Part shown: positions 7,440 through 48,733 of the stretch, piece by piece
Layout: each line of letters starts with the position of its first letter
Numbering within the stretch: the first letter of the stretch is position 1
Virus record (IMG/VR): IMGVR_UViG_3300005528_000059
Location: 5,409-69,408 of that record
Strand: one strand, 5' to 3'
DNA length: 64,000 bases
DNA from: a virus
Notes under the pieces: generated by a model
The model's input: only the letters and a program-made list of their open reading frames with translations
Databases searched by the model: none
What the model was told of the DNA's origin: nothing
Program-made: the position numbers and the translations under genes

Positions 7440-9161
7440 ATGTTACTCTTATTATTCTCTAGTCAACAAGCAATACTTGCCGCTCGATCAGGAGCGGTAG
7501 GTCGAGCCGCGATTGGACGTGTTGCAGTCGGTGCAGGAACTAGCGGTGCTGCTACCTCTTCTTCAGCCAGTGTTACTGTAAACGGTGGAACTTTTTCAGT
7601 AGGGTTCTCCTTAACTACTGGAACTGCAACCACTATCAGTAATCCAACTGTTACTGGCGGAACGTTCGTAGTATCTTATTCTCTTGTTGGAGGGATTGTC
7701 ACTACAATCCGCAGTCCGACAGTTGCCGGTGGCGACTTCACTTTCACATACAGCTATGTCGCAGGCACCGCATCTACAGGAACCGGAGCTAACGTAAACG
7801 GTGGATCGTTCAGCGTTGGGTACTCCTTCGCAGGGGGAACTGCTACAGCGATACAGAATTCAACGGTGTCCGGTGGGACTTTCAACGTTGGATTTTCCTT
7901 AACTTCCGGAATCATTAGTGTTGACGATTTCTCCACTGGAGGAACGTTCACCATTGGATACGCCTTAGCAGGTGGAGCAGTAACGACTGTTCGTAGTCCA
8001 ACAGTAGCGGGCGGAGTATTCTCCATTGGATACTCCCTCACTCCGGGAACAGTATCCACTGGAACAACTACGAATGTCAGTGGCGGATCATTCACTGTAG
8101 TATTCACCCTTACAGACGGTGTAGTCACCACTGTTCGTAACCCGACGGTTGCAGGCGGAGCACTCTCAATTGGCTACTCGCTAACAGGTGGAACAATTAC
8201 TACTGTTCGTAGCCCAACTGTCACAGGAGGCGCAGTAGGATTCACTTACGTTTTCGCAGCGGGGATGGCCTCCACTGGGACAACTCAACTAGGTCAGCCG
8301 TTCATTGTAACCTACCTGCTAGTGGGCGGAACAGTCACGACTGTTCGAAATCCTACGGTTGCAGGTGGGTCTTTTGTAACAACTTATAATTTCTCAGCAG
8401 GAGCCGTTAGCTTAGGGGCAACTCCTTCGGGAGCTGCGTTCTCGTACACGCTTTCGTTGGTTAGTGGAACGGTTACTGCGAACCGCAGTATTTCAGTCGC
8501 AGGTGGAACTCTATCCTTTGGATATAATTTCGCAGCCGGAACAGCTTCCGCTGGTGGTTCGGCTAATCCCTCAGGTGGTGTGTTCTCTATTGGGTTCTCC
8601 CTAGTTAGCGGATCAGTTAGCACTCAGTCTAATTCAAACGTCTCAGGGTTCAACTATTCTATTGGGTATGCGATTTCCGCAGGAACAGCTAGCGGTGTAA
8701 GATTCGTAACTGTTGACGGTGTCAGCTATGTAGCAGGTTGGTCTTTGACCCCAGCTATCGCGTCGGCTGTTAGAAACATCTCGGTTGCGGGCACGAACTT
8801 CGCCTTCCCAATCTTCTTGGCTACTGGCTCAGTTACGATTGACGCTCTTACACCACCAAGAGCGCTGACAGTAAACTATTCTCTTTCCACTGGAACCGTC
8901 ACGGCTATTCGCAGCCCAGTCATATCCGGTGGAAACTTAGGATACCTTTACGATTTCGCAGCGGGTGGCGTAGCTATATCTATCAGCCGCGTAGGCTTCG
9001 ACTTTGGATTTAATTACTCCTACGATCCAGGTGAGGCCAGTGTAACTGAAGGTATTTTTGTAGTCAACGGAATTTTCACTATTGGTATCCCTTCGATCAA
9101 GGAATACACAATCCCATTTACTGCTGCTCAAGAGATTACGATTTACTTGAAAACAGCGTGA
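7440..9161 (+). CDS. Gly/Thr/Ser/Val-rich repetitive structural protein (~26-aa repeats)
   Basis: About 20 copies of V.GG.F.+GYSL.GG.+TT+R.PT; very few charged residues. Confidence 0.7.
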   Translation: MLLLLFSSQQAILAARSGAVGRAAIGRVAVGAGTSGAATSSSASVTVNGGTFSVGFSLTTGTATTISNPTVTGGTFVVSYSLVGGIVTTIRSPTVAGGDFTFTYSYVAGTASTGTGANVNGGSFSVGYSFAGGTATAIQNSTVSGGTFNVGFSLTSGIISVDDFSTGGTFTIGYALAGGAVTTVRSPTVAGGVFSIGYSLTPGTVSTGTTTNVSGGSFTVVFTLTDGVVTTVRNPTVAGGALSIGYSLTGGTITTVRSPTVTGGAVGFTYVFAAGMASTGTTQLGQPFIVTYLLVGGTVTTVRNPTVAGGSFVTTYNFSAGAVSLGATPSGAAFSYTLSLVSGTVTANRSISVAGGTLSFGYNFAAGTASAGGSANPSGGVFSIGFSLVSGSVSTQSNSNVSGFNYSIGYAISAGTASGVRFVTVDGVSYVAGWSLTPAIASAVRNISVAGTNFAFPIFLATGSVTIDALTPPRALTVNYSLSTGTVTAIRSPVISGGNLGYLYDFAAGGVAISISRVGFDFGFNYSYDPGEASVTEGIFVVNGIFTIGIPSIKEYTIPFTAAQEITIYLKTA

Positions 9162-9196
9162 GCCGAGCGAGGCGGTTTCCTCGACAGGAGGTAAGA

Positions 9197-9517
9197 ATGG
9201 AAGTCGATATCACCGAAATCGTGAACATGGTGTTTCAAGGTGCTGCTCTTTTGATCAGCATTATTGTTGGTCATTTTGTGAAACAGGAACAGGCAAAGAA
9301 AGCTATTCTAGGCGCAATCCAATTCGCTTTGGATTTCGCTAAGCAGAAAGTTCAGACTGGTGGCATGTCAAAAATTGAAATTGATAATCAGCTTGTCGCG
9401 CTGGCTGTAGAATATCTTAACAAGCGGTTTCCTTCAGCGATTAAACAACTCGGTATCAAGCAGGAGGACTTGGAAGAGATTGTACTTTCTCGACTTCCTA
9501 GTACCAATCGTGGTTAG
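9197..9517 (+). CDS. Putative holin (single N-terminal TM helix, LL-H-like layout)
   Basis: aggagg RBS before ATG 9197; one TM segment then AVEYL..RFP.AIKQLGI; last gene before a terminator. Confidence 0.55.
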   Translation: MEVDITEIVNMVFQGAALLISIIVGHFVKQEQAKKAILGAIQFALDFAKQKVQTGGMSKIEIDNQLVALAVEYLNKRFPSAIKQLGIKQEDLEEIVLSRLPSTNRG

Positions 9518-9537
9518 TTAATTTTGAATCCTTAATG

Positions 9538-9570
9538 AACGAGCCTCCTGCAACGGGGGCTCGTTTGTTG
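9538..9570 (+). terminator. Intrinsic terminator closing the structural operon
   Basis: aacgagcctcc-tgcaac-gggggctcgtt hairpin followed by a T-rich tail. Confidence 0.7.
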
Positions 9571-9596
9571 TAATGACAATTGTCTTTGTTTATAGT
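9568..9596 (+). promoter_or_regulatory. Sigma70-like promoter of the replication module
   Basis: TTGTAA-N17-TATAGT, then ggag RBS and ATG 9617. Confidence 0.65.
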
Positions 9597-9616
9597 ACAA
9601 CGAACGGAGATTTACA

Positions 9617-10045
9617 ATGCAGACTAAAGAAACTGAGTTTTCAAAATTCGTGAGGACCACAGATAAAAGTTTTGACCTACGTCGTATCGAAACTGCCGAA
9701 GAGGATGGAACTGCGGATTTGCTTGGCTATCATGTGCCGACAGGGAAAGGTTTAACTATTGAGCTCAAGTCCCGACCAGTTAACAAACTAGGCAAAATTG
9801 ATATGCAACTCAAACCCGACCAGCGTATCTTCCTAAGATGGGCTACACACTTTTTAACTTCACTAGTTGTTGTTGATTTGCAGGACGAGCGTGTGCTAAT
9901 TCTTCCAGCGGTGAATACGTTAGGGTGGCATACAGGCACTCATCTAACCCAGGAGCTGCAGAGTTTGATCGACTTAGGTGGATTTGTCGTTCCAAAGGAG
10001 AAATTGCACGCTGCCCTTGCTGCCTACCTTACAAGGGCGGTTTAG
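9617..10045 (+). CDS. PD-(D/E)XK nuclease (VRR-NUC/resolvase-like)
   Basis: RIE..GTADLLG..TIELKS..LKPDQRIFLR; adjacent to an SNF2 helicase. Confidence 0.7.
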   Translation: MQTKETEFSKFVRTTDKSFDLRRIETAEEDGTADLLGYHVPTGKGLTIELKSRPVNKLGKIDMQLKPDQRIFLRWATHFLTSLVVVDLQDERVLILPAVNTLGWHTGTHLTQELQSLIDLGGFVVPKEKLHAALAAYLTRAV

Positions 10046-13449: not shown

Positions 13450-13480
13450 ACCCAACTTATCCGTTTTGAGGAGTATGAAA

Positions 13481-14203
13481 ATGAGTGAAGTCGAAGAAGT
13501 AGCAGCCGCAGAAGTTGAAGACAAAGCTGCGAAGGCCGCTGCAAAAGAAGCCGCGAAAGCTGCCAAGGCTGCTGAAGCTGCTGAAAAGAAAGCTGCAAAA
13601 GCTGCTGAGCGTGAAGCTGCGAAAGCCGCCAAGGCTGCTGAAAAGAAGGCTGAAGTTCCAGTGTTCGTCGGCCCTAACGCCGCGAGCGAAGGCACTGTTT
13701 ATGATCGCCTGCGCAAAGTAGTTTCGGGTGCTGAAGGTTTACCAATGGATGAGTTGATCACTCACACGATCACCAGCGGCTTTGTTGCTGATAATTCCAA
13801 GGCGTTCACCGACAAGCCAGCATCCTTCTTGCGCGGCTACTTCACCACGGGTATCCGCAAGGGCTTCTTTGCGACCACTGCTGGAGCAGTTTACACGAGC
13901 GAAAAGCGTCAGCAAGCTACTCGCAAGGTAGCCAAGGAAGTTCCAGAAAGCGCATCAGTTGTCCTGTTGGTGTTGCAGCAATTGGCAACTGTCGCAGCTG
14001 ATGGTGAAAGCAACGTCGGCGTGGGCGTCGAGCCTCAAGAAATTGTGAAGGCGTCCGAAAAGACGAAGTCCACAGTTAACAAGGCGCTGAAGAAGCTGGA
14101 AGAAGGCGGTTACATCGAGCTTGACCAAGTCGGTGAGCCTGACCCGAAGGACGTCGCTTTCCTTACCCAAAAAGGCTCGGATTACACAGTCGAAGCTGCG
14201 TAA
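13481..14203 (+). CDS. Ala/Lys-rich (histone H1-like) N-terminus plus C-terminal winged-HTH DNA-binding protein
   Basis: AAKAAAKEAAKAAKAAEAAEKKAA repeats; EIVKASEKTKSTVNKALKKLEEGGYI..AFLTQKG (MarR-like wHTH); gaggag RBS. Confidence 0.7.
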   Translation: MSEVEEVAAAEVEDKAAKAAAKEAAKAAKAAEAAEKKAAKAAEREAAKAAKAAEKKAEVPVFVGPNAASEGTVYDRLRKVVSGAEGLPMDELITHTITSGFVADNSKAFTDKPASFLRGYFTTGIRKGFFATTAGAVYTSEKRQQATRKVAKEVPESASVVLLVLQQLATVAADGESNVGVGVEPQEIVKASEKTKSTVNKALKKLEEGGYIELDQVGEPDPKDVAFLTQKGSDYTVEAA

Positions 14204-14219
14204 TTTCTGATTATCTTTT

Positions 14220-14255
14220 AAGCCCGATCCTAGTGCAGGATCGGGCTTTTTGTTT
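14220..14255 (+). terminator. Intrinsic terminator
   Basis: aagcccgatcc-tagtgca-ggatcgggctt followed by a T-tract. Confidence 0.85.
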
Positions 14256-14269
14256 GAGGAGGACCTCCC

Positions 14270-15163
14270 ATGCTTGTGAAGCCAATGTCTACTAGACCTA
14301 AGACTTACGAAGAAGCCCTGTCTCTTCTGGAATACTATCTTCATGAGAGGGAGAAAATTCGCTTAGCTAAACTCGGGGATAGTCACCCCACTTCAAGCGA
14401 CCCTATATTGAAAAAGTATAGGTTTACCAATGTCCTGCGCGCCCACGATCGTACTACTCAATGGGGTGTAGAGAACATCTACAAGCCTTTGATGGCTGAG
14501 GATGCAGGCGCAGAGATTATTCTTTTGAACGCTGGTATCTTTAGATACTTTGGCACGACTGACTTTTTCAAAGAGTTAGGCATTCAACGCGACTTCCAGC
14601 CTGAAGTTATCATTGGGAAAGCACGGGAAATGCGCGCTCGTGGCCAGAAAGTTTTTACGTCGGCTTACGTAATCACTAACGGTGGTATCAGTCTGCCAAA
14701 AGAAGAGGTCGTAGTCAACCATTACATCAGGGCATTGTACACTAATATTCCCGAGATTCTAGGGAACTACGAGAACAAATTTGAAATCTACGCAAAGCGT
14801 ATGTATCAGCTCAAGGGATTTGGTGGCACAGGTTTCATGACAAAGGAAGTTCTTTCCGATGTCCTCCTGTCAGGTGTAGTAGACTTCACTGACAAGTACG
14901 AGTGGAGTCCGGTTGGTCCTGGAGCCCTTCGTGGCTTAGGTTGGATGTTTCCGAACAGTCGCCACAATATTCCAAAAGGTGACAAAGCTGTCCCTCTTCT
15001 CCGTATGATTGCCAAGGACTTGAAGTTAGAGCCTTGGATGCCTCAGTTTGGAAAAGAGCTTGACCTTCACGGTATTCAATTTGCTATGTGCGAGCTTGAC
15101 AAATATGCGCGAACGCTATATGATGGCGGCGCACCTAAAGCAATCTACAAGCCCTACTTCTAA
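14270..15163 (+). CDS. aGPT-Pplase1 / 5-hmdU DNA kinase helical-domain family protein (HhH-glycosylase-like DNA-modification enzyme)
   Basis: ERE.IR..DPILKKYRFTNVLRAHDR, G.G.GFM.KEV.SD, GPGALRGL, CELDKYAR motifs. Confidence 0.85.
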   Translation: MLVKPMSTRPKTYEEALSLLEYYLHEREKIRLAKLGDSHPTSSDPILKKYRFTNVLRAHDRTTQWGVENIYKPLMAEDAGAEIILLNAGIFRYFGTTDFFKELGIQRDFQPEVIIGKAREMRARGQKVFTSAYVITNGGISLPKEEVVVNHYIRALYTNIPEILGNYENKFEIYAKRMYQLKGFGGTGFMTKEVLSDVLLSGVVDFTDKYEWSPVGPGALRGLGWMFPNSRHNIPKGDKAVPLLRMIAKDLKLEPWMPQFGKELDLHGIQFAMCELDKYARTLYDGGAPKAIYKPYF

Positions 15164-15177
15164 CTCGGAGCGAAGTA

Positions 15178-15999
15178 ATGACAAAAGAAATGAGAATTTA
15201 TATTCCCAGTCGGGGAAGAGCCGACCCACGGCTTCAATACACCTCAAGAATCCTTAACGATGCAGGTATCGTTCATTACCTAGTAGTTCGCCCAGACGAG
15301 ATGGAAGCATACCAAATAATGCTCAATCATCATGCCGATGAATTTCGTCACACAAAACTTCTCGATCGTCCAGAGTCCTGCACGAACTTGTCACAGACAC
15401 TTAGCCACTTGATTCGAGTATCCGCAGGGATTGGTGTGAACTGTTTGCTGCTAGATGACGATCTTCGTTTCAGCAGACGTATTAGCCAGAAAGGTCCAGA
15501 ACTCCGTAAGGCTGACCCTCAGGACATGCCTGAGCTTATCGCACGCTTAGCAGCACTTCTTGATGGTGACGTGAAGATGGCTGGTATTTCTGCCCGTACT
15601 ATGAACCAAAATCGCTATCCTGATACGGTTCAATACTGTGGTCGCCAGATGCAAGCTCACGCTATTGACACAGAGTTTTTCGTTGATGAGGGTATCGATC
15701 CTGCACGAGTTATCTGTAAGTCTGATTTTCACATGACGCTTTGCGTGTTGGAAGCGGGTTATCGTAACGCAATCATTTGTGATTACACCGTGGACCAAGC
15801 TTCTGGCTCGAACGCCAAAGGCGGAGTTTCTACCTACCGCACTGCTGAAGTTATCAATGAGGGTGCAGAGCTGCTAAAACAACTGCATCCCGACTACGTT
15901 AAGATCGTAGAAAAGGCTACCGTGTGGAAAGGCATGTCTGGCATCCGTAAGGAAGTCAACATCGGTTGGAAAAAAGCTTACAAGGAGGCTAAGTTATGA
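15178..15999 (+). CDS. GT-A fold DNA glycosyltransferase (TAGT/GREB1-like family)
   Basis: IYIPSRGR, LVV...E..AY, LLDDDL (DxD), DFH.TL..L..GY.N, SNAKGG.S.YRT, L...HP.YVK. Confidence 0.8.
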   Translation: MTKEMRIYIPSRGRADPRLQYTSRILNDAGIVHYLVVRPDEMEAYQIMLNHHADEFRHTKLLDRPESCTNLSQTLSHLIRVSAGIGVNCLLLDDDLRFSRRISQKGPELRKADPQDMPELIARLAALLDGDVKMAGISARTMNQNRYPDTVQYCGRQMQAHAIDTEFFVDEGIDPARVICKSDFHMTLCVLEAGYRNAIICDYTVDQASGSNAKGGVSTYRTAEVINEGAELLKQLHPDYVKIVEKATVWKGMSGIRKEVNIGWKKAYKEAKL

Positions 16000-17057
16000 A
16001 GACTATGTTAGAATCTACTCATCCCGATTACGGTCTTTTGTTTATCGCACGAGATGCAATGAACAATTCAGGTTGGATCAAGCGCGATAGTCGTGCTGGT
16101 TTCACAGTTGAGTTTGAAAGCCCTGTGATCGTCAAAAACAGCCGTTACTATATTTCGTCTTCGCCTGTTCGAGATGCTAATCCGTTCTTCCATTTGGCTG
16201 AGTCCCTTTGGATGCTTGCTGGTCGCCAGGACTTGGACTTTCTTCTTATCTTCAACTCCACCTTCGGCCAGTTTTCTGACGATGGCAAGTTTGTTCGCGG
16301 TTCGGCCTATGGTTATCGCTGGCGTGAATTCTTTGGCAAAAATCAGATTGCTAGTATTATCAATGAGTTACAGAATACTGCGTCGCGTCGTGCTGTTCTA
16401 ACACAGTGGTCTGTCGAAGACCTTAACATTGACTCCAAGGACGTTCCCTGCAACACTCAAACGTACTTCCTTGTTCGCAATGGCAAGTTAGACATGACTG
16501 TAGTCAACCGCTCAAACGATTTGATCTATGGAATGTACGGAAGCAACATTGTTCACTTCTCGATTTTGCATGAGTATATCGCTTCTGCGCTGAACATCGA
16601 GAAAGGCGATTACTACCAAATGTCAAATTGTTTGCACATCTACACGGATAACTCTGTGTTCCAAAAGATGCAAAGCAACTATCGTGCTGACTTCTCTGCT
16701 CCCGAAGTCGACAACGATTTGGCAGGCTATTGTGATAATCCTTACGGCTCATTGGTCCAAGCACCAATTGGTGACGCTGTGCAGTTCATGTCTGACCTCA
16801 CTGAATTTTTTAATAAATTCGATGAGTTGCGTAGTACTGCCCCCGATCGTGATGCTCTGGAAGATTTGGGCCTAGCTCTTGGGCAAATCCGAGATACGAC
16901 TTCCCCTTTGCTTCAAGATTTCTATCACATGGGCTTAGCCTGGATTTCTTTCAAGCGCAAACAGAAGCCTATTTGGTTGCCGAACGACGGTGGCACTATC
17001 TGGCGTTTCGTCAGTCAGAATTACCTGACACGTCGCAACAGGGAGATTCTTTCTTGA
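15996..17057 (+). CDS. Thymidylate-synthase-fold enzyme, probable dUMP hydroxymethylase
   Basis: RDANPFFHLAESLWMLAGR, AYGYRWR, SRRAVL, DVPCNT (catalytic Cys), NRSNDLIYGMYGSNIVHFS (Asn indicates dUMP specificity). Confidence 0.85.
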   Translation: MKTMLESTHPDYGLLFIARDAMNNSGWIKRDSRAGFTVEFESPVIVKNSRYYISSSPVRDANPFFHLAESLWMLAGRQDLDFLLIFNSTFGQFSDDGKFVRGSAYGYRWREFFGKNQIASIINELQNTASRRAVLTQWSVEDLNIDSKDVPCNTQTYFLVRNGKLDMTVVNRSNDLIYGMYGSNIVHFSILHEYIASALNIEKGDYYQMSNCLHIYTDNSVFQKMQSNYRADFSAPEVDNDLAGYCDNPYGSLVQAPIGDAVQFMSDLTEFFNKFDELRSTAPDRDALEDLGLALGQIRDTTSPLLQDFYHMGLAWISFKRKQKPIWLPNDGGTIWRFVSQNYLTRRNREILS

Positions 17058-17614
17058 TACAGAATCTAGCACACTTAGAGGATCGTTTGGATACGGGTGG
17101 TGTAACTCGCTACCACGCTGCCCCCGACGTAGAACCTCAGAATATTGCCGAACACTCTTGGAGGGTCTGTCAGACCCTCCTTTTCATTTATCCAGAGGCT
17201 TCTGCTGACTGCATGCGGTATGCCCTTGCCCACGACATGGATGAACGTTTCGTAGGGGATATTCCTTACTTTACAAAAGCAAAATTAGACATGTCGGTTG
17301 TCGAAGCCGAAGCAGACAAACTGTTAGACAACTTCATGGACTCCACGGATGTCCGTGGAACAAAACTTCAGAAGCACGAAAAACTACTTGTTGATTTCTG
17401 TGATCGATACGAGCTAACCGTTTACTGCCTTAGCCAAAGGACACGCGGGGGACGCCGTATAGCGCTCTCGGGTATTAGTATATGCTTGCGTACCCTAGAC
17501 GAGTTTAGAGCTATAGCTATTAGCGCCCCTGTTCTACGAACGCAAATCTATGCGTTAGCACGCACTATGGAGTTGCTAGTGTACGAGGCAAATCTATCTC
17601 TAAACAAAAATTGA
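17054..17614 (+). CDS. HD-domain 5'-deoxynucleotidase (YfbR-like)
   Basis: VTRYH..QNIAEHSWRV..ALAHDMDERFVGDIP..D..E; TTG start overlapping the upstream stop. Confidence 0.85.
   Translation: MIQNLAHLEDRLDTGGVTRYHAAPDVEPQNIAEHSWRVCQTLLFIYPEASADCMRYALAHDMDERFVGDIPYFTKAKLDMSVVEAEADKLLDNFMDSTDVRGTKLQKHEKLLVDFCDRYELTVYCLSQRTRGGRRIALSGISICLRTLDEFRAIAISAPVLRTQIYALARTMELLVYEANLSLNKN
17431..17540 (-). repeat. Dispersed element copy B, embedded in the HD gene
   Basis: Minus strand atacggcgtcccccgcgtgtcct matches copy D atacggccacgcccgcgtgtcct; TAG/CTA-rich. Confidence 0.5.
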
Positions 17615-17668
17615 AGTGGCGTCTGACGTTTAGGTAAGTTACACTAAAACACAAACAAGGAGAGCACC

Positions 17669-18112
17669 ATGATTGACCAAGTAGGTGGTAGTCATTATTC
17701 TAGAGCAGGCAATTTCCAGCATTGGGATTTGTGGCTTCTTATTCGACCTTTTGACGGTAACATCCTTATCTACGCAGCTACCAAGTATCTTGCTCGCCTT
17801 GATATGAAAGAGCCTTTGGTGGGTGTTCGTAAGTCTATCTCTTATCTTGAGAAGTATCTTATCCACGTCAAGCAAAAAGCTGCTAATCCACAAGTGCCGT
17901 TTGCTGTCTGTATCTCCCAAGAGCCTACGCCACTTGATCGTATTCTTCAAACGCTTCCAACGGTTGAAACTGACCCACGCATCGTTGGTGTGTATATCGC
18001 TCTTAGCGGACATCCTACCTTGAGTACTGTCGAAAATTGCGTGAAAGTTCTTAAGTCCTACGTCGAGGACGAACAAAGAAAGCCTGTGGCGGCTGATGCT
18101 TTTAACATCTGA
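17669..18112 (+). CDS. DUF3310 (SaV-like) domain protein
   Basis: QVGGSHY..QHWD..ATKYLAR...K.....+RK...YLEK. Confidence 0.75.
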   Translation: MIDQVGGSHYSRAGNFQHWDLWLLIRPFDGNILIYAATKYLARLDMKEPLVGVRKSISYLEKYLIHVKQKAANPQVPFAVCISQEPTPLDRILQTLPTVETDPRIVGVYIALSGHPTLSTVENCVKVLKSYVEDEQRKPVAADAFNI

Positions 18113-20006
18113 TTTTCCAACCAGCCTGCCGAAAATACGTGTTGTCGATACAGAAACATGTGATCCACATCTAAAACGTCGAGGTCCAGGCTGGCCTTAT
18201 TATGACGTTGCAGAAGCCGGTATTATTGGGATAGGTGTTTTCTGTCCTGAAAATAACCAGAAATTCTACATACCTATCAATCATGCTAATAGTGAATGTG
18301 TAGATATTGACACTGCAATGCGATGGGCCGAGCAGGTTCTGTTTGATCCTGATTGCACAATGGTCTTTGCCAACGCCGAGTACGACTTAGGGTGGTTTCA
18401 TCATCACGGGGTAAAATACAACGGCTTCAAAATTGAGGATGTTCAAGTACAAGCTCCATTGATAAATGAGCATGAGTTTAGCTTCTCGCTCGAGAATCTT
18501 TCTCGACGTAACAAAGTCGCGCAGAAAAACGAAGAGGTACTTCTTCAATATGCTCAACAAGTTGGTATCGCTTCAAAAGATGTGAAAGCATCGTTGAGGT
18601 TCATGCCTGCTGATATCGTTGGGCAATACTGTGTAGACGACTGCATTGCAACATGGGAGAATTTTCAAGCGCAGCTTCCAGAAATGGAACGCCAAAACCT
18701 TTGGAGCATCTACGAGCTAGAGACTTCGCTTATACCGCACATGATCCCAATGCGTATGCGTGGCGTTCGTATTGACCAGGATCGTTGTGAGGTAGTCTCC
18801 AAGCAATTCTTCGATTTGGAGCAAGCGGCTCGCTCGGTTATCAAAGACCAGACCGGCATTCATGTTGAAAGCCCTTGGGCTTCAGCAGAGCTAGCCAAGG
18901 TATTGGATCATGTGGGTATTCCGTACCCTACTACTCCCAAAACTGGTAAACCTTCTATTAAGAAAGACTACATGGAAGGTCTACCTGAGCATCCTGTTAT
19001 TGATGCTATTATCGACTTCCGGAGGTTCAACAAAGCACGCACGACTTTTACTGAAGGCTTCTTTGACGAGTTCTGCATTAAGGGTCGTGTTCATACGAAC
19101 TTCAACTTGTTGAAAAGCGACGAAGGAGGCACCATCAGTGGAAGGTTATCTTCCGACAGCCCCAACATGCAGCAGATTCCTGCACGAGACCCTGAGATTG
19201 GTCCACTCGTTAGGTCGATCATCTTAGCTGAAGAGGATTGCTTATTCGCCTCGTTAGATTATTCCCAACAGGAGCCGCGACATACTGTTCACATGGCTTA
19301 TCTGTTGCGTAATGCTTCAGCAGCAGTCTTGCGTGAGCAATTCATTCTTAATCCTAAAACTGACTTCCATCAGATGAATTCTGACCTTACAGGTATTCCT
19401 CGTAAGGCAGTTAAGGAAATTGGTCTTGGCCTTGCTTACGGAATGGGCGGGGGTAAGCTAGCTCGAAAACTTCGACTTCCGTTTACTTTGTCTAACTTCC
19501 GTGGCAAAGAAATTGAGAAAGCTGGCCCAGAGGCGCAGGCACTCCTGGATAAATTTCATGCCCGTGCTCCGTACATCAAAGACTTAGGCAAAGAGTGTAA
19601 GAAGGCTGCTCAGTCGCGTGGCTATATTCGCACACCGATGGGCCGAGTTATCCACTTCCCAACAATCAACGGCGAAGTATGGAAGTCTCACAAAGCACTG
19701 AACGGCCTTATCCAAGGTATGAGTGCTGACGAAACTAAGCGAGCAATGGTCATGTGTGCGCAGGCAGGATTCCCATGTGCTTTACAAGTTCACGACGAGC
19801 TAAACTTTACGCAGTTCAGTAATCCTGAAGACACTTATGTTGTTGCGCAGATTATGCTGGATGCTATGATAACTTCTGTGCCTTCCAAGGTCGACGTTGA
19901 AATTGGTAAGAGCTGGGGTGAGTGTGAGTTGTATGAGTTTAAGACTCATACACTGAAACGTTCTTACGTGGAACGAGATAGCCAGGAGCTACTTTATGCA
20001 GCATAG
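18096..20006 (+). CDS. polA: DNA polymerase family A with 3'-5' exonuclease
   Basis: VDTET, ANAEYD (exo); SGRLSS.SPNMQQIP; DYSQQEPR (A); RKAVKEIGLGLAYG (B, Leu at the E. coli 762 position); QVHDEL (C). Confidence 0.97.
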   Translation: MLLTSDFPTSLPKIRVVDTETCDPHLKRRGPGWPYYDVAEAGIIGIGVFCPENNQKFYIPINHANSECVDIDTAMRWAEQVLFDPDCTMVFANAEYDLGWFHHHGVKYNGFKIEDVQVQAPLINEHEFSFSLENLSRRNKVAQKNEEVLLQYAQQVGIASKDVKASLRFMPADIVGQYCVDDCIATWENFQAQLPEMERQNLWSIYELETSLIPHMIPMRMRGVRIDQDRCEVVSKQFFDLEQAARSVIKDQTGIHVESPWASAELAKVLDHVGIPYPTTPKTGKPSIKKDYMEGLPEHPVIDAIIDFRRFNKARTTFTEGFFDEFCIKGRVHTNFNLLKSDEGGTISGRLSSDSPNMQQIPARDPEIGPLVRSIILAEEDCLFASLDYSQQEPRHTVHMAYLLRNASAAVLREQFILNPKTDFHQMNSDLTGIPRKAVKEIGLGLAYGMGGGKLARKLRLPFTLSNFRGKEIEKAGPEAQALLDKFHARAPYIKDLGKECKKAAQSRGYIRTPMGRVIHFPTINGEVWKSHKALNGLIQGMSADETKRAMVMCAQAGFPCALQVHDELNFTQFSNPEDTYVVAQIMLDAMITSVPSKVDVEIGKSWGECELYEFKTHTLKRSYVERDSQELLYAA

Positions 20007-20920: not shown

Positions 20921-21319
20921 ATGCAAACCTTTCTTCCTTATCCCTGTCTCTACTCTTCTCTACGTTGCCTAGACTATCGACGCCTAGGCAAACAACGTCT
21001 CGAAGCCAAGCAAATGATAAACGCGCTGACCGGTGCTAGTTCCGGTTGGCGCAATCATCCAGCTACTGTCATGTGGGATGGTTACGTTCCCGCGCTTATG
21101 CACTATCACAATCTGAGTATCGCACTTTGGGTCGAGCGTGGCTATCGTAACACCATGCCCATCTTCGTAATTGACAATAGCCAAGTTCAGTTACCTTTCT
21201 GGTTTGGCGACAAAGATTTCCACTCAGCTCATCGTGCAGCTTTGCTTTTCAAAGATTACGACTTCTACTCCAAGTACGGTTGGGCAGAAGAACCTAAGTT
21301 GGATTACCTATGGCCCTAG
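20921..21319 (+). CDS. Pyrimidine-dimer DNA glycosylase (DenV/MSMEG_6728-like)
   Basis: MQTFLPY..LD.RRLGKQRLEA.Q..W.NHPA..MW.GY..HR..LL.KD..FY. Confidence 0.88.
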   Translation: MQTFLPYPCLYSSLRCLDYRRLGKQRLEAKQMINALTGASSGWRNHPATVMWDGYVPALMHYHNLSIALWVERGYRNTMPIFVIDNSQVQLPFWFGDKDFHSAHRAALLFKDYDFYSKYGWAEEPKLDYLWP

Positions 21320-23761: not shown

Positions 23762-25246
23762 ATGAACGCTGTTCGTCAAGTAAGTATGATAGCGGCACTT
23801 CGTGAAGCGGCTTTGCGAAAGGCCGCTAGCGAAAATCCAGCTGACTATTGTCGCTACGTGCTAGAAGTCGAACCTGCTGAGCATCACATATTGATGCTTA
23901 ATGAGCTGAACAGTGTTATCGAGGAGATGTTAAAAGGTCGCAGCGCCATGCGCTTGATGATCTTAGCTCCTCCTGGAAGTGCTAAATCAACTTATACGTC
24001 ACATGGATTTGCTTCCTATGCAATGGGAAGACTTCCTGCGGGTTATAACATCGCAGTGGGTACGCACACTGATGGCTTCTCGAAATCATGGAGTCGTAAA
24101 GTTCGTAACACCTGTCGATCACGCAGACACTTGAATGTGTTCCCTAACTCGGGGGTTAGCAAAGATCACGCTGCTGTTCAGGAATGGTCAACACTCGATA
24201 ATAAAGAGTTCTTCGGTAAAGGTGTAGGCGGGACGATCACTGGTAAGCGTGTAGACCTTTTGATTCTGGACGACTTAATCAAAGGCGAGAAGGCAGCTAA
24301 CTCCAAGGCTGATCGTCGCACAGTTATTGATTGGTACCTCACTGACGTATATACACGATTAAAGCCTGGAGCATCTATTGTCATCGTTAACACACGCTGG
24401 CATGAAGAAGACCTTCCAGGATATCTAATCGAGCAGATGGAAAACGGCGTCGGCGAGCCTTGGAAGATTCTTAAACTTCAAGCACTTTGCACCGATCCTG
24501 AAAACGACCCAATGAAACGCCAAGTCGGGGAGGTTCTCTGGCCTGGATGGCAACCTTTGGAAGAAATCCTGCGCATCCGCGATAAGTCTGGTATGAGCAC
24601 TCGGGTATTCGATTGCTTGTATCAACAGGAGCCTAAGTCCAAGGAAGGTTCGATAGTTCTACGTAAATGGTTCCTCACCTACACAGACGAGGAGCTACGT
24701 GTAGCACTTTCACATCCTAGGTCGCGTCTGTATATCAGTATAGATACCGCCGACACTAAAGATGCTAGAAATGACCCGACAGTTGCCTTAGTTATCCTGG
24801 AGCACGAAGGACGATCTTATCTGCTGAAAGAGTATCGAGAACGAAAAGAGTTCAACGAACTCAGCAAAGATATAAAGAGCCTCATTCGAGAAATGACTCT
24901 GAAGTATAAGAAGCCTACTGCTATCCTCGTAGAAGGTAAAGGTGGCGGCTTAGCTATCATCTCTGACTTGAAGAACGGTGTTAACGTTCCGGTCATTAAA
25001 ATCAACCCTAACGAAATCGGTGATAAAGAGTTCCGCTTTGACAAAGCTACACCTTACATCGAATCTGGGGCGTTCCTGCTACCTGATAAAGACTTGCCTT
25101 GGGTTGATGCTTACTTAGACGAATTAACGACTTTCCCAGCTTCCCGTAACGATGATCGAGTCGACTCAACCTCGCAATATATCAACTATATTCAGAATAA
25201 GCCAAAGAAACGGCGTTCAACGGGCAGGCGCACTGCCCACGGGTAA
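23762..25246 (+). CDS. terL: Terminase large subunit
   Basis: APPGSAKST (Walker A), GGTITGKR, LLILDD (Walker B), TRWHEEDL.G, YQQEP, SIDTA, NDDRVDS nuclease motif. Confidence 0.95.
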   Translation: MNAVRQVSMIAALREAALRKAASENPADYCRYVLEVEPAEHHILMLNELNSVIEEMLKGRSAMRLMILAPPGSAKSTYTSHGFASYAMGRLPAGYNIAVGTHTDGFSKSWSRKVRNTCRSRRHLNVFPNSGVSKDHAAVQEWSTLDNKEFFGKGVGGTITGKRVDLLILDDLIKGEKAANSKADRRTVIDWYLTDVYTRLKPGASIVIVNTRWHEEDLPGYLIEQMENGVGEPWKILKLQALCTDPENDPMKRQVGEVLWPGWQPLEEILRIRDKSGMSTRVFDCLYQQEPKSKEGSIVLRKWFLTYTDEELRVALSHPRSRLYISIDTADTKDARNDPTVALVILEHEGRSYLLKEYRERKEFNELSKDIKSLIREMTLKYKKPTAILVEGKGGGLAIISDLKNGVNVPVIKINPNEIGDKEFRFDKATPYIESGAFLLPDKDLPWVDAYLDELTTFPASRNDDRVDSTSQYINYIQNKPKKRRSTGRRTAHG

Positions 25247-25330: not shown

Positions 25331-25414
25331 ACATTTAGTTGAAAATTGTGCCAGTTTGCTCGCACACTACTAGATATGGTAGTTTGGGGGTTCCCTAAAG
25401 CTTTGGAGCGCGTT

Positions 25415-27349
25415 ATGTCTAACTCACAAGAATCCCACATGCTACCTTATCAACGATACATTCACATGTCGCGCTATGCCAGATTTAGAGACGATTTAGG
25501 TCGCCGAGAAAACTGGGAAGAAACTGTTGATCGTTATGTTTCTTTCTTTGAGAAACGGGAAGGATCGAAACTTCCGCGGAGCCTATGGGCAGAACTTCGC
25601 TCGGCTATCGGTGGTATGAAGGTGATGCCATCCATGCGCGCAATGATGTCAGCCGGTCCTGCTTTGGAAAAAGAAAACCTTTGTGGTTTCAATTGCTCTT
25701 ATCTTTCAATCTCGCGTGTGCGTTCACTTGCTGAGATGCTTTACATTCTAATGTGCGGCACAGGTGTTGGGTTTTCTGTTGAGCGCCAGCTTATCAAGAA
25801 ACTACCAGAAGTCGCCGAGGGTCTTCCAGCAATTGACAAGACTCCTTACGTTGTAGAAGATTCCAAGGAGGGATGGGCAGAAGCCTACGAACATCTACTG
25901 ACAAACCTCTGGGAAGAAAATATCATTCCCACATTTGACTATAGTTTAGTTCGCCCCGCAGGGGAGCGTCTTATGACGATGGGAGGGAGAGCTTCTGGCC
26001 CCGGACCACTGAAGGATCTTTTCCAGTTCACCATTCAGACTTTCATGAATGCTCGCGGTCGCAGACTGCACTCCACGGAACTTCACGACTTGGCCTGCAA
26101 AGTCGGTGAAATCGTAGTGGTAGGCGGTGTTCGCCGTTCTGCGCTTATCTCGTTGTCTAACTTGTCTGATGACCGTATGCGCGATGCTAAATCGGGCAAC
26201 TGGTACATCACCCATCCGTGGCGTTCCATGGCAAACAACTCAGCGGCTTACACAGAAAAGCCTGATTGCTTCGTGTTCACAAAAGAGTGGCTGGCCCTCA
26301 TGAACTCTGGCTCGGGGGAGCGCGGTATTTTCAATCGTGAAGTAGCTCAGCGTCGTGTGAAGAATCTACCAACCGGCCGAGATCACAACCACGAGTTCGG
26401 TACTAATCCATGTGGTGAGATTATTCTTCGTGACATGGGCCTTTGTAACTTGACTGAAGTGATTCTTCGCCCAACAGACACCTACGAACAGATGGTGGAG
26501 AAAGTCCGTTACGCCACCATCCTCGGCACACTACAATCAACTCTTACCAAGTTCAAATTCGTTGACTCAACTTGGGAAAAGAATGCTATCGAAGAAAGAC
26601 TGTTAGGCGTGTCCTTGACAGGTATCTTGGACTTGGAAGTATTCCGTCTGCAGAATGGCTTCTCTGAAAAAGACGCACGCCAAATCCTTCGCGACCTGCG
26701 CAAAGTGGCTCACGAGGTTAACAAAGAGTTTGCCGATCTTCTTGGTATTGAGCCAAGCAAGGCGATAACTTGCGTCAAGCCTTCTGGCACGGTTTCGCTG
26801 CTGACCAACTGTTCTCCAGGAATTCATCCAGGATATGGCAACCAAATCATTCGCCGTATCCGTAATGACATGAAGGACCCAATGACACAGTTCCTCATCG
26901 AGCAGGGTGTGCCTTGGGAGCCATGCGTCAACAAGCCAGAAGAAGTCGCAGTGTTCTCGTTCTACATCGAGTCCAGCGACTACACTCTGGATGATCTGAC
27001 GGCTGTTCATCATTGCAACATTATCAAGATGTTCGCTGAGGAATGGTGTGACCATAATCCATCCTCTACAGTTATTGTTCGCGATAACGAATGGCTGGAA
27101 GTGGGTGCATGGGTCTACAAGAACTTCGACTCAATCCTAGGAACCTCGTTCTTGCCCTACTTCGGCTCCTCAACTTATCAGCAGCTTCCTATTGAACCTG
27201 TGTCTCGCGCAGTTTGGGAAGAAGGCGTTGCCAACAGTCCAAGTGACTTGGATTGGTATCGCTTGGCTGAAATCGAGAATGGTGTGGACAACGTCGAGCG
27301 GACGCGTGAGCTGGCTTGTGTATCAGGCACTTGCGAAATTCCAAACTAA
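25415..27349 (+). CDS. nrdJ: Class II (B12-dependent) ribonucleotide reductase
   Basis: PSMRAM, FNCSY, GTGVGFS, VGGVRRSA, TNPCGEI, CVKPSGT, C-terminal ACVSGTCEI. Start moved to ATG 25415 (ggag RBS). Confidence 0.95.
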   Translation: MSNSQESHMLPYQRYIHMSRYARFRDDLGRRENWEETVDRYVSFFEKREGSKLPRSLWAELRSAIGGMKVMPSMRAMMSAGPALEKENLCGFNCSYLSISRVRSLAEMLYILMCGTGVGFSVERQLIKKLPEVAEGLPAIDKTPYVVEDSKEGWAEAYEHLLTNLWEENIIPTFDYSLVRPAGERLMTMGGRASGPGPLKDLFQFTIQTFMNARGRRLHSTELHDLACKVGEIVVVGGVRRSALISLSNLSDDRMRDAKSGNWYITHPWRSMANNSAAYTEKPDCFVFTKEWLALMNSGSGERGIFNREVAQRRVKNLPTGRDHNHEFGTNPCGEIILRDMGLCNLTEVILRPTDTYEQMVEKVRYATILGTLQSTLTKFKFVDSTWEKNAIEERLLGVSLTGILDLEVFRLQNGFSEKDARQILRDLRKVAHEVNKEFADLLGIEPSKAITCVKPSGTVSLLTNCSPGIHPGYGNQIIRRIRNDMKDPMTQFLIEQGVPWEPCVNKPEEVAVFSFYIESSDYTLDDLTAVHHCNIIKMFAEEWCDHNPSSTVIVRDNEWLEVGAWVYKNFDSILGTSFLPYFGSSTYQQLPIEPVSRAVWEEGVANSPSDLDWYRLAEIENGVDNVERTRELACVSGTCEIPN

Positions 27350-47983: not shown

Positions 47984-48733
47984 ATGGAAAGAAAACTTAG
48001 CAGTGAGAGCTTGAAATTACTATGTCAAGCTTCTTTTTCCTGTAGGGAAGAAATGCAGCATTTGAACGATAAGAATATGGCACTGCGTCAGCATAGTGCT
48101 GAGATAGCAAGTAACTTAGAAAAATACCAAACATCGCTAGCTGCGGGTGTGAACAGTGACGGTTTTCACTATGTTTATTTTCAAAATTCAACTATCTTTG
48201 ACAAGCCTTCTATGCTTTCGCCTTCTATGTTGTTGTCAACTATCAGCGAGAGTCGCAAGGCGTTGGTTACTAACAGGCTAGAGATCGAAGATAACGAGCG
48301 TCAGATCGATGAGCTCGACCGTCTCATGGAATTGTATGACGAAGATGCAATTGCTTTTGGCATTGTACCGGAGCCCACTTCAGAGGCTTCTGCTGCTGTA
48401 AATGAGTTACTTGCTACAATCGAAAATCCTCTTGGGGATTTGCTCAATATCAAAACGCGCATCCTCGTTAAAGGTATCGCTTGTGATGTGCAGGAAGTTT
48501 TCCTGAAGGTGCAAGAGATCGTAGTTAGTCTTGTCAGTATGGAAAAACAGCAAGTTGAAGCTGATACGTTTCTTCATGACGACGTGGGTATGGACGACTT
48601 AGACTTCGTTGACCTCATACTCCGCCTGCAAGAAGAGTTTGATTGCTGCATTCGCACGGCTGATGTCCATGGCTGGCGAACAGTAGGCGATGTCGTGCGC
48701 ACTGTCATGAACAACTCAAAGGTGGCTCACTAA
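47984..48733 (+). CDS. Coiled-coil protein fused to an acyl-carrier-protein-like domain lacking the phosphopantetheine Ser
   Basis: KVQEIV..V..DTFLHDDVGMDDLDFVDLILRLQEEFD..I......TVGDVV; the DSLD motif reads DDLD. Confidence 0.75.
   Translation: MERKLSSESLKLLCQASFSCREEMQHLNDKNMALRQHSAEIASNLEKYQTSLAAGVNSDGFHYVYFQNSTIFDKPSMLSPSMLLSTISESRKALVTNRLEIEDNERQIDELDRLMELYDEDAIAFGIVPEPTSEASAAVNELLATIENPLGDLLNIKTRILVKGIACDVQEVFLKVQEIVVSLVSMEKQQVEADTFLHDDVGMDDLDFVDLILRLQEEFDCCIRTADVHGWRTVGDVVRTVMNNSKVAH

Follow-up and report, generated by a model that had tools for sequence, protein, structure and literature searches.

A single route, which combines a kinase, an amino-acid:DNA transferase (AADT) and tailoring enzymes, currently accounts for thymidine hypermodification in phages. 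In the phages M6, PaMx11 and ViI, 5-hydroxymethyluracil (5hmU) is laid down before replication and modified after it, the adduct being an amino acid; the DNA of M6 is reported to derive from 5-hydroxymethyldeoxyuridine (5-hmdU) (PMC8989533). A sugar on 5hmU is known from base J of kinetoplastids, in which a TET/JBP dioxygenase (JBP1/2) acts on DNA and the glucosyltransferase JGT completes the base, whereas the phage pathways that pair 5mYOX/TET enzymes with GT-A glycosyltransferases, of the same glycosyltransferase family as the one studied here, have characterised sugars on 5-hydroxymethylcytosine (5hmC) (10.1101/2023.12.21.572611). Here we analyse a viral stretch of 64,000 nucleotides (the window; bases 5409-69408 of the 69,408-base IMG/VR record IMGVR_UViG_3300005528_000059), in which an operon at 14270-20006 combines a protein of the HMUDK_hel family, also called aGPT-Pplase clade 1 (PF18723; HEL for short), with a GT-A glycosyltransferase (GT) and a homologue of thymidylate synthase (TS). 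We favour, with a confidence only slightly past the even mark, a pathway in which 5hmU DNA is glycosylated after replication by the GT, in the manner of base J, while HEL acts catalytically on the same base.

The families TAGT (PF20691) and aGPT-Pplase were reportedly defined by Iyer in 2013. The gene neighbourhood of GT-A enzymes and thymidylate synthases is already surveyed in print: a metavirome study reports GT-A genes about evenly beside 5mYOX and thymidylate-synthase (ThyS) genes, and sugar epimerases in the vicinity (10.1101/2023.12.21.572611), which dates the view, held in an earlier note made from the letters of this DNA, that TAGT-like enzymes are known mainly beside TET/JBP. The parts of that survey available to us mention neither the HEL family nor an exclusion of kinase and AADT. 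Across the literature, in which the 2013 work is a possible anticipation, we found no statement that the synthase of such clusters is of the uracil type, and no account of HEL as their constant partner, of mutual exclusion between glycosyltransferase and kinase/AADT or of an AADT-like cysteine motif in HEL; a search that left supplementary tables aside likewise returned no description of a sugar on 5hmU in phages.

Gene order shared with PhiJL001 and M6

PhiJL001, a Keylargovirus phage of Alphaproteobacteria, carries in gp19-gp28 the gene order found in the window: HEL (gp19; PF18723, E 1.5e-45), GT (gp22), synthase homologue (gp24), HD hydrolase (gp25), DUF3310 protein (gp26) and DNA polymerase PolA (gp28). 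All six window genes have homologues there, but at only 25-44% identity, and PhiJL001 has an Nmad5 gene (gp23) between GT and synthase that is absent from the window record. Its GenBank notes name a glucosyl transferase and a SPO1-like hydroxymethylase. M6 gp55-gp62 is also syntenic with the window in HEL, synthase, HD, DUF3310 and PolA genes; in M6, however, kinase, AADT, PLP and radical-SAM genes (gp51-54), all absent from the window record, lie just upstream, and Nmad5 (gp56) occupies the place of the window GT. In the Brevibacterium phage LuckyBarnes, gp38-gp41 comprise HEL (PF18723, E 4.6e-68), two GT-A genes and a synthase homologue beside PolA, although this cluster differs from that of the window in its two glycosyltransferases, the length of the synthase homologue (517 aa), the reversed gene order, the actinobacterial host and a PolA that is barely related. 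At the nucleotide level, none of 50,697 phage records matched the region by megablast.

In the window, six plus-strand genes run head to tail over 14270-20006, several of them overlapping, behind a terminator:

14220..14248, + strand: terminator-like hairpin of 12 pairs, 7 of them G-C, followed by a T run; it ends the gene upstream, and the operon begins behind it
14270..15163, + strand: HEL, 297 aa, a PF18723 protein, with the ribosome-binding site (RBS) GAGGAGG ahead
15178..15999, + strand: GT-A glycosyltransferase, 273 aa, TAGT (PF20691) / phrog_842
15996..17057, + strand: thymidylate-synthase-family enzyme, read as a dUMP hydroxymethylase, with Cys152 and Asn184; its start overlaps the GT stop (ATGA)
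17054..17614, + strand: HD phosphohydrolase (YfbR-like), HD_3; the longest open reading frame (ORF) runs from 16973
17669..18112, + strand: DUF3310-like small protein, with N-terminal homology only, to PhiJL001 gp26 and M6 gp61
18096..20006, + strand: family A DNA polymerase (PolA) with 3'-5' exonuclease, DNA_pol_A; overlaps the preceding gene

This arrangement is most likely that of an operon for DNA modification and replication in a phage related to PhiJL001 and M6. The five ORFs on which the earlier note had built its cluster all lie on the plus strand where it had placed them, and the polymerase gene that it put directly downstream is there (DNA_pol_A, E 2.7e-51), the product being 35% identical to PhiJL001 gp28 and 39% to M6 gp62. 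Two of its calls needed adjustment. The HD gene has the expected match (HD_3, E 4.4e-10), but its start had been taken as 16973; a TTG at 17054 is likelier because it overlaps the synthase stop (TTGA) and follows an AGGGAG RBS, and it is probably the true start. The product of 17669-18112, which had been called DUF3310, gives no Pfam DUF3310 match by itself, and the call survives through its N-terminal 57 residues, which are 42% identical (E 5e-13) to PhiJL001 gp26, a protein that does match DUF3310.

A candidate route to glycosylated 5-hydroxymethyluracil

In the pathway that we favour, as in M6, PaMx11 and ViI, 5hmU would be laid down before replication and modified afterwards, but the predicted adduct is a sugar. 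The synthase homologue would convert dUMP to 5-hydroxymethyl-dUMP, the HD hydrolase would remove competing dTTP/dTMP or dUTP, and the phage PolA would build 5hmU into DNA; with an NDP-sugar as donor, the GT would then glycosylate the 5-hydroxymethyl group within the DNA, yielding a 5-(glycosyloxymethyl)uracil akin to base J. Base J belongs to this predicted product class, a sugar on 5hmU, but here a nucleotide-level hydroxymethylase acting before replication would supply the 5hmU in place of a dioxygenase acting on DNA. Such a route would need neither a P-loop 5-hmdU kinase nor an AADT. HEL, which has no counterpart in base J synthesis, would flip the same 5-substituted uracil into its pocket, where its invariant Cys would attack C6 as in its structural relative AADT; acting in this way, it would be a second catalyst on the modified base and not a kinase.

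The synthase homologue matches PF00303 (E 3.5e-21) and phrog_5131 (E 2.7e-74), has its catalytic residue at Cys152 and finds as its best match in the Protein Data Bank (PDB) the CMP hydroxymethylase MilA (1.2e-20), with ThyA behind (5e-14). The Asn singled out in the earlier note, Asn184, does align with Asn177 of E. coli TS and with the Asp of MilA. The Asp that marks T-even dCMP hydroxymethylases at this base-specificity position is replaced by Asn, which occurs together with the catalytic Cys in 69/69 aligned homologues, 65 of them from related loci and the others from M6, PhiJL001, LuckyBarnes and Rhizobium phage RHph_TM26. Scores against the NCBIfam ThyA equivalogs are far below their cut-offs, the best being 80.8 against 174.55 (TIGR03283) and 69.1 against 327 (NF002497). 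The alignment thus supports a uracil-type enzyme distinct from canonical ThyA, with dUMP as the predicted substrate because Asn stands at the specificity position across the homologues. Its nearest cultured relatives are found in M6-type and Bordetella CN1-type phages, the M6-type proteins being 36-37% identical over 91-95% of its length, and it is an orthologue of M6 gp58. The LuckyBarnes homologue gp41 (L002:4448-6001), about 160 residues longer than its relatives, was called a predicted dCMP hydroxymethylase in the genome announcement (PMC6588365); its specificity position, however, holds the uracil-type Asn, which makes it probably a dUMP enzyme.

The assignment of the second gene to the GT-A glycosyltransferases, already made in the earlier note, is borne out by its matches to TAGT (E 2.6e-9; 37.7 bits against a cut-off of 27.5) and phrog_842 (E 7.8e-32) and by a GT-A fold in the predicted structure (pLDDT 92.1), for which Foldseek returned TarP, GnT-I, TarS and RmlT at E 1.5e-5 to 1e-4; a PDB sequence search with the protein gave only chance-level rows (E > 0.7). 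TarP is reported to be the closest solved structure of the phage GT-A enzymes as well, and a motif R...DDD...EDY/F is described as common to phage DNA GT-A enzymes and the trypanosome base-J glucosyltransferase JGT (10.1101/2023.12.21.572611). The window protein fits this motif with R14, D93-D94-D95 and S182-D183-F184. R14, the three aspartates and D183 are invariant in 19/19 aligned sequences; the position of the Ser holds Glu or Gln in most relatives. A T4-like enzyme acting on 5hmC was considered for this gene and rejected owing to the Asn of the synthase homologue. In four related records (G029, G030, G033 and G034, those of loci L045, L046, L051 and L053), the GT-A matches fall in open frames of 369-407 aa, each with a single TGA in frame.

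The HEL protein alone, used as a query, found no close relative in viral or metagenome contigs; an alignment of 40 HEL relatives was needed, and returned 80 viral loci. These share a conserved frame of HEL, variable slot, synthase, HD, DUF3310 and PolA genes. A crude ORF caller saw both HEL and synthase in 54 of the 80, and the other 26 were dropped from the count of gene order. In those 54 loci the slot holds a GT-A gene (17), a family of about 430 aa (21), a radical SAM/SPASM gene alone (4) or unrecognised ORFs only (12); at least one of the last 12, L007, is a miscall, because phrog_842 finds its GT. Further slot genes encode an FkbM-type methyltransferase (beside the GT in L009 and L010) and an NAD-dependent sugar epimerase/dehydratase, which directly adjoins the GT in L073 and L078. 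This variety of radical SAM/SPASM, FkbM and epimerase types (examples at L060:6938-7939, L058:10942-11658 and L078:11064-12011) suggests several different adducts within one phage group. The family of about 430 aa, represented by L021:11860-13146 and 25 further distinct sequences (such as L012:10866-12197), has no Pfam, PHROG or direct PDB match. Two leads nevertheless agree in making it a probable GT-B glycosyltransferase: its look-alikes by language model are viral clusters with Glycos_transf_1 and the T4 alpha-glucosyltransferase family AGT, and its profile matches GT4 and GlgA chains over the C-terminal sugar-nucleotide region (E 2e-4 to 7e-4).

The kinase, AADT and TET enzymes of which the earlier note saw no trace in the window are missing from the whole 69.4-kb record as well, and so is the canonical kinase plus AADT for which that note had left room outside the window: six-frame searches at E <= 1 gave 0 matches each for PF18748 (kinase), PF18724 (AADT), PF18757 (Nmad5) and PF12851 (Tet_JBP, the last without a positive control). 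No kinase-like Pfam family appeared among 39 larger or neighbouring proteins scanned directly, nor among the other 84 ORFs, which gave only capsid, SSB, DnaA_C, DUF1353, PP-binding-domain and coiled-coil families. Identical searches recovered both kinase and AADT in M6 and RHph_TM26, which served as positive controls. In PhiJL001 (63.6 kb) and LuckyBarnes (50.8 kb), whose genomes are complete, they gave neither over the cut-off, the sole AADT row of PhiJL001 (14.1 bits, below the cut-off) lying inside its own HEL gene.

The same holds in the relatives. We searched the whole records behind 50 of the 80 HEL loci, picked for their longer contigs and including 19 that are >=90% complete. AADT was found in 0/50 and a kinase over the cut-off in 0/50, the 19 near-complete records included; one of the 50 had a kinase row at E <= 0.001, with 24.5 bits and below the cut-off, and the Tet_JBP model, again without its control, matched in 0/50. 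The synthase homologue was present in 47/50 (18/19 near-complete) and GT-A, by phrog_842, in 21/50 (6/19 near-complete). A second set of 47 records, retrieved with AADT as the query, has HEL in 36 (in 11/11 of the near-complete ones) and GT-A in none, so that GT-A and AADT occur together in 0/97 records of both sets. A fuller ORF search covered 131 loci, 114 of them with HEL; labelled from flanking sequence only, the HEL partners are GT-A in 37, a GT-B-like enzyme in 33, AADT in 33 (27 with kinase too) and none of these in 11, and no locus of the 114 joins a glycosyltransferase to AADT or kinase.

The clade 1 helical protein

The identification of the first gene as an aGPT-Pplase1-type helical protein, proposed in the earlier note, is confirmed by a PF18723 match of 103.7 bits against a cut-off of 25 (E 1.5e-29), in which residues 16-282 cover model positions 3-274 of 281. 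PF18723 is the family labelled 'aGPT-Pplase clade 1' in phage records, and M6 gp55 matches it too (8.1e-56). The GGTGF hairpin of the family is present in the window protein. Cys274-Glu275-x-x-Lys278, in the last helix, is conserved in 106/106 distinct HEL sequences, the window included, irrespective of the partner genes. Four other positions switch with the partner set between GT-type and kinase-type HEL: 95 (G/N), 192 (K/Y), 214 (P/N) and 271 (F/H). When partner types are mapped onto a FastTree of the 106 sequences, 95 of the rows being labelled, 3 changes account for the division of GT from AADT/kinase partners, whereas shuffled labels need about 27 on average for each label tested singly; this is weak evidence, because related sequences share partner labels anyway.

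The predicted structure of HEL (pLDDT 94.1) has a helix-hairpin-helix fold like that of DNA glycosylases. In an exhaustive structural comparison, the closest solved fold is the AADT gp46 of PaMx11 (rmsd 4.5 over 224 aligned residues), at a Z of 10.4 that falls short of the roughly 13 that helical proteins can reach by chance, and the 22 solved chains with Z >= 5 comprise AADT, a queuine salvage enzyme and helix-hairpin-helix DNA glycosylases. Foldseek of the model against the PDB gave nothing at E <= 0.001, with only weak rows for OGG and EndoIII, and a PDB sequence search with HEL had no match at E <= 10. PaMx11 gp46 is described as a 5-phosphomethyl-dU glycinyltransferase whose Cys247 attacks C6 of the flipped base (PMC11472151). 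The aligned ranges end at 294 in HEL and 268 in gp46, an offset that fits Cys274 opposite Cys247; comparisons by hhalign of HEL with M6 gp51 alone and with 27 AADTs were too weak for aligning the catalytic cysteines. Prediction of a complex between HEL and GT scored 0.00 in both runs, a verdict of 'no answer'.

SPO1 DNA carries plain 5hmU. SPO1 has a synthase homologue, and HEL was not found in it at E <= 1; on the strength of this one genome we set aside the idea that HEL is needed merely for making 5hmU DNA. In the literature we found neither an assay of any clade 1 protein nor a description of clade 1 function. Acinetobacter phage SH-Ab 15599 (MH517022.1), recently shown in a 2026 paper to make diaminopropanyl-thymine, encodes a HEL homologue at 9048-9905 (26% identity, E 8e-12); the term 'aGPT-Pplase' has 0 occurrences in that paper, which names the clade 2 protein Pplase2 and apparently leaves the clade 1 gene undiscussed.

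The genes around the operon offer some further observations. Just upstream of HEL, 13466-14203 encodes a protein with an Ala/Lys-rich repeat N terminus and a winged-helix C terminus, whose role may be to coat DNA; the gene in the same place in relatives (for example L029:9288-9920) has a weak linker-histone H1/H5 match (E 0.002). Just after PolA and a 5'-3' exonuclease in the replication module, 20921-21319 encodes a pyrimidine-dimer DNA glycosylase like T4 endonuclease V (Pyr_excise, 2.8e-22; NCBIfam MSMEG_6728 family, 5.2e-39), with homologues in 7 of the compared loci. The large terminase gene (23762-25246) lies inside the same module and is followed at 25346-27349 by the gene of a 667-aa protein that has only weak ribonucleotide-reductase matches (E 7e-7 and weaker). 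Farther on, among about 70 small ORFs without family, 47984-48733 encodes a 249-aa protein with a C-terminal phosphopantetheine-attachment (acyl-carrier-like) domain (48506-48703; PF00550, 33.3 bits).

Weighing the possible products

The earlier note had read the cluster as making a sugar-bearing thymidine. The computational checks agree with that reading, and the product itself is something that we infer. Several points weigh against the pathway that we favour. A sugar on 5hmU is predicted from genes alone for every phage with this cluster. That the synthase homologue hydroxymethylates, as opposed to methylating, rests on its orthology to the M6 enzyme, since sequence alone cannot separate the two reactions. 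The TAGT match of the GT is modest, and at the 12 of 54 loci that lack a recognisable slot enzyme, at least one of them miscalled, HEL may be independent of a GT. The link between HEL and AADT is one of fold, at a Z that is not decisive for helical proteins, and a profile comparison of HEL with the 27 AADTs gave Prob 1.4% and E 0.036; the pairing of Cys274 with Cys247 would follow from the ends of the aligned ranges and not from a residue-level superposition. By CheckV the record reaches about 69% completeness, with most structural genes missing, and a contig of 100,733 bases is known to carry the identical HEL protein. Finally, the dioxygenase searches lacked the positive control that the kinase and AADT searches had.

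The incompleteness leaves room for a canonical kinase and AADT in the missing 30% or so of the genome, from which a known base of the amino-acid or polyamine type would be made. We consider this very improbable. Genes of this kind directly adjoin HEL and synthase in M6, in RHph_TM26 and in the AADT loci; they are missing from all 19 near-complete related records and both complete genomes; GT-A accompanies AADT in none of the 97 records; and the missing part looks structural, because the record opens with tail-fibre and lysis genes and closes in a capsid gene. The GT might instead act elsewhere than on 5hmU DNA, either on 5hmC in the T-even style or on something other than DNA, for instance a phage protein or, like TarP, a polymer of the host surface. 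Its best solved-structure matches are indeed teichoic-acid and protein glycosyltransferases, its PHROG family takes its name from a T-even 5hmC enzyme, and the announced function of the LuckyBarnes synthase homologue would point the same way; against this stand the Asn in place of Asp in every aligned synthase, that of LuckyBarnes included, the position of the GT gene between HEL and synthase, whose start it overlaps, the GT-B-like gene that takes the same slot in relatives and the motif held in common with JGT, and we judge such a target improbable. We give similarly little credence to HEL as a non-catalytic, DNA-binding and base-flipping adaptor that presents 5hmU to the kinase or glycosyltransferase of the phage. 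The Pfam name of the family, a 'helical domain' of the kinase, would suit an adaptor, and SP10 gp186 is reported to be a fusion of kinase and HEL (PMC5889632) whose kinase domain is active alone (PMC8989533). The clustering of partner types on the HEL tree would suit it too, weak as that evidence is, but an invariant Cys-Glu-x-x-Lys would be unexpected in a pure adaptor.

A less conventional possibility is that HEL, and not the GT, sets the final base, with the sugar or plain 5hmU as an intermediate only. Its Cys would form an exocyclic methylene, after which the C5 substituent would be exchanged or removed, for example by turning part of the 5hmU into thymine or by adding another nucleophile, so that the base in the virion would differ from simple base J and from every base described so far. 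The invariant motif, the AADT-like fold with the mechanism known for AADT, and the K192/F271/P214/G95 pocket of GT-type HEL in place of the Y/H/N/N of kinase-type HEL are in keeping with this. So is the occurrence of HEL in all near-complete AADT-bearing records and in GT-type phages, even though M6 gp55 is reported to be dispensable for making the glycine adduct in vitro (PMC8989533). ViI-like phages are reported to be only partly modified, with 16.4% of dT replaced (10.64898/2026.05.19.726188), and the title of a 1981 paper states that thymidylate of SP10 DNA arises post-replicatively from 5-hm-dUMP. Against it, both a glycoside and a hydroxyl are poorer leaving groups than phosphate, we see no reductant-binding domain, our literature searches turned up no clade 1 assay, and the idea proceeds by analogy; we regard it as unlikely. 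With a comparable degree of doubt, we can extend it to a conjecture that HEL is a Cys-dependent enzyme for activated 5hmU in DNA that every post-replicative system of thymidine hypermodification shares, with phospho-5hmU as its substrate in kinase-type phages and glycosyl- or plain 5hmU in the present one, and that it restores thymine at some sites or exchanges the C5 substituent. If this were true, the virion base of a large GT-linked phage group would be undescribed, and both the role of the clade 1 protein and the origin of residual thymine in such phages would be explained.

Returning to glycosylation of 5hmU DNA by the GT, the reading that we favour, the records searched point to a second and apparently common branch of thymidine hypermodification, in which the same hydroxymethylase and the clade 1 protein go with a GT-A or probable GT-B glycosyltransferase and never with kinase and AADT. 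The role of the clade 1 protein becomes testable through its invariant Cys-Glu-x-x-Lys, the positions that switch with its partners and its absence from SPO1, and with PhiJL001 and LuckyBarnes the cluster is available in two phages in culture, on which the prediction can be checked directly. Should a sugar on 5hmU prove to be the product, base-J-like DNA would be common among environmental phages and would be made without a dioxygenase; DNA modified in this way bears on the evasion of restriction and on failures of sequencing and cloning.

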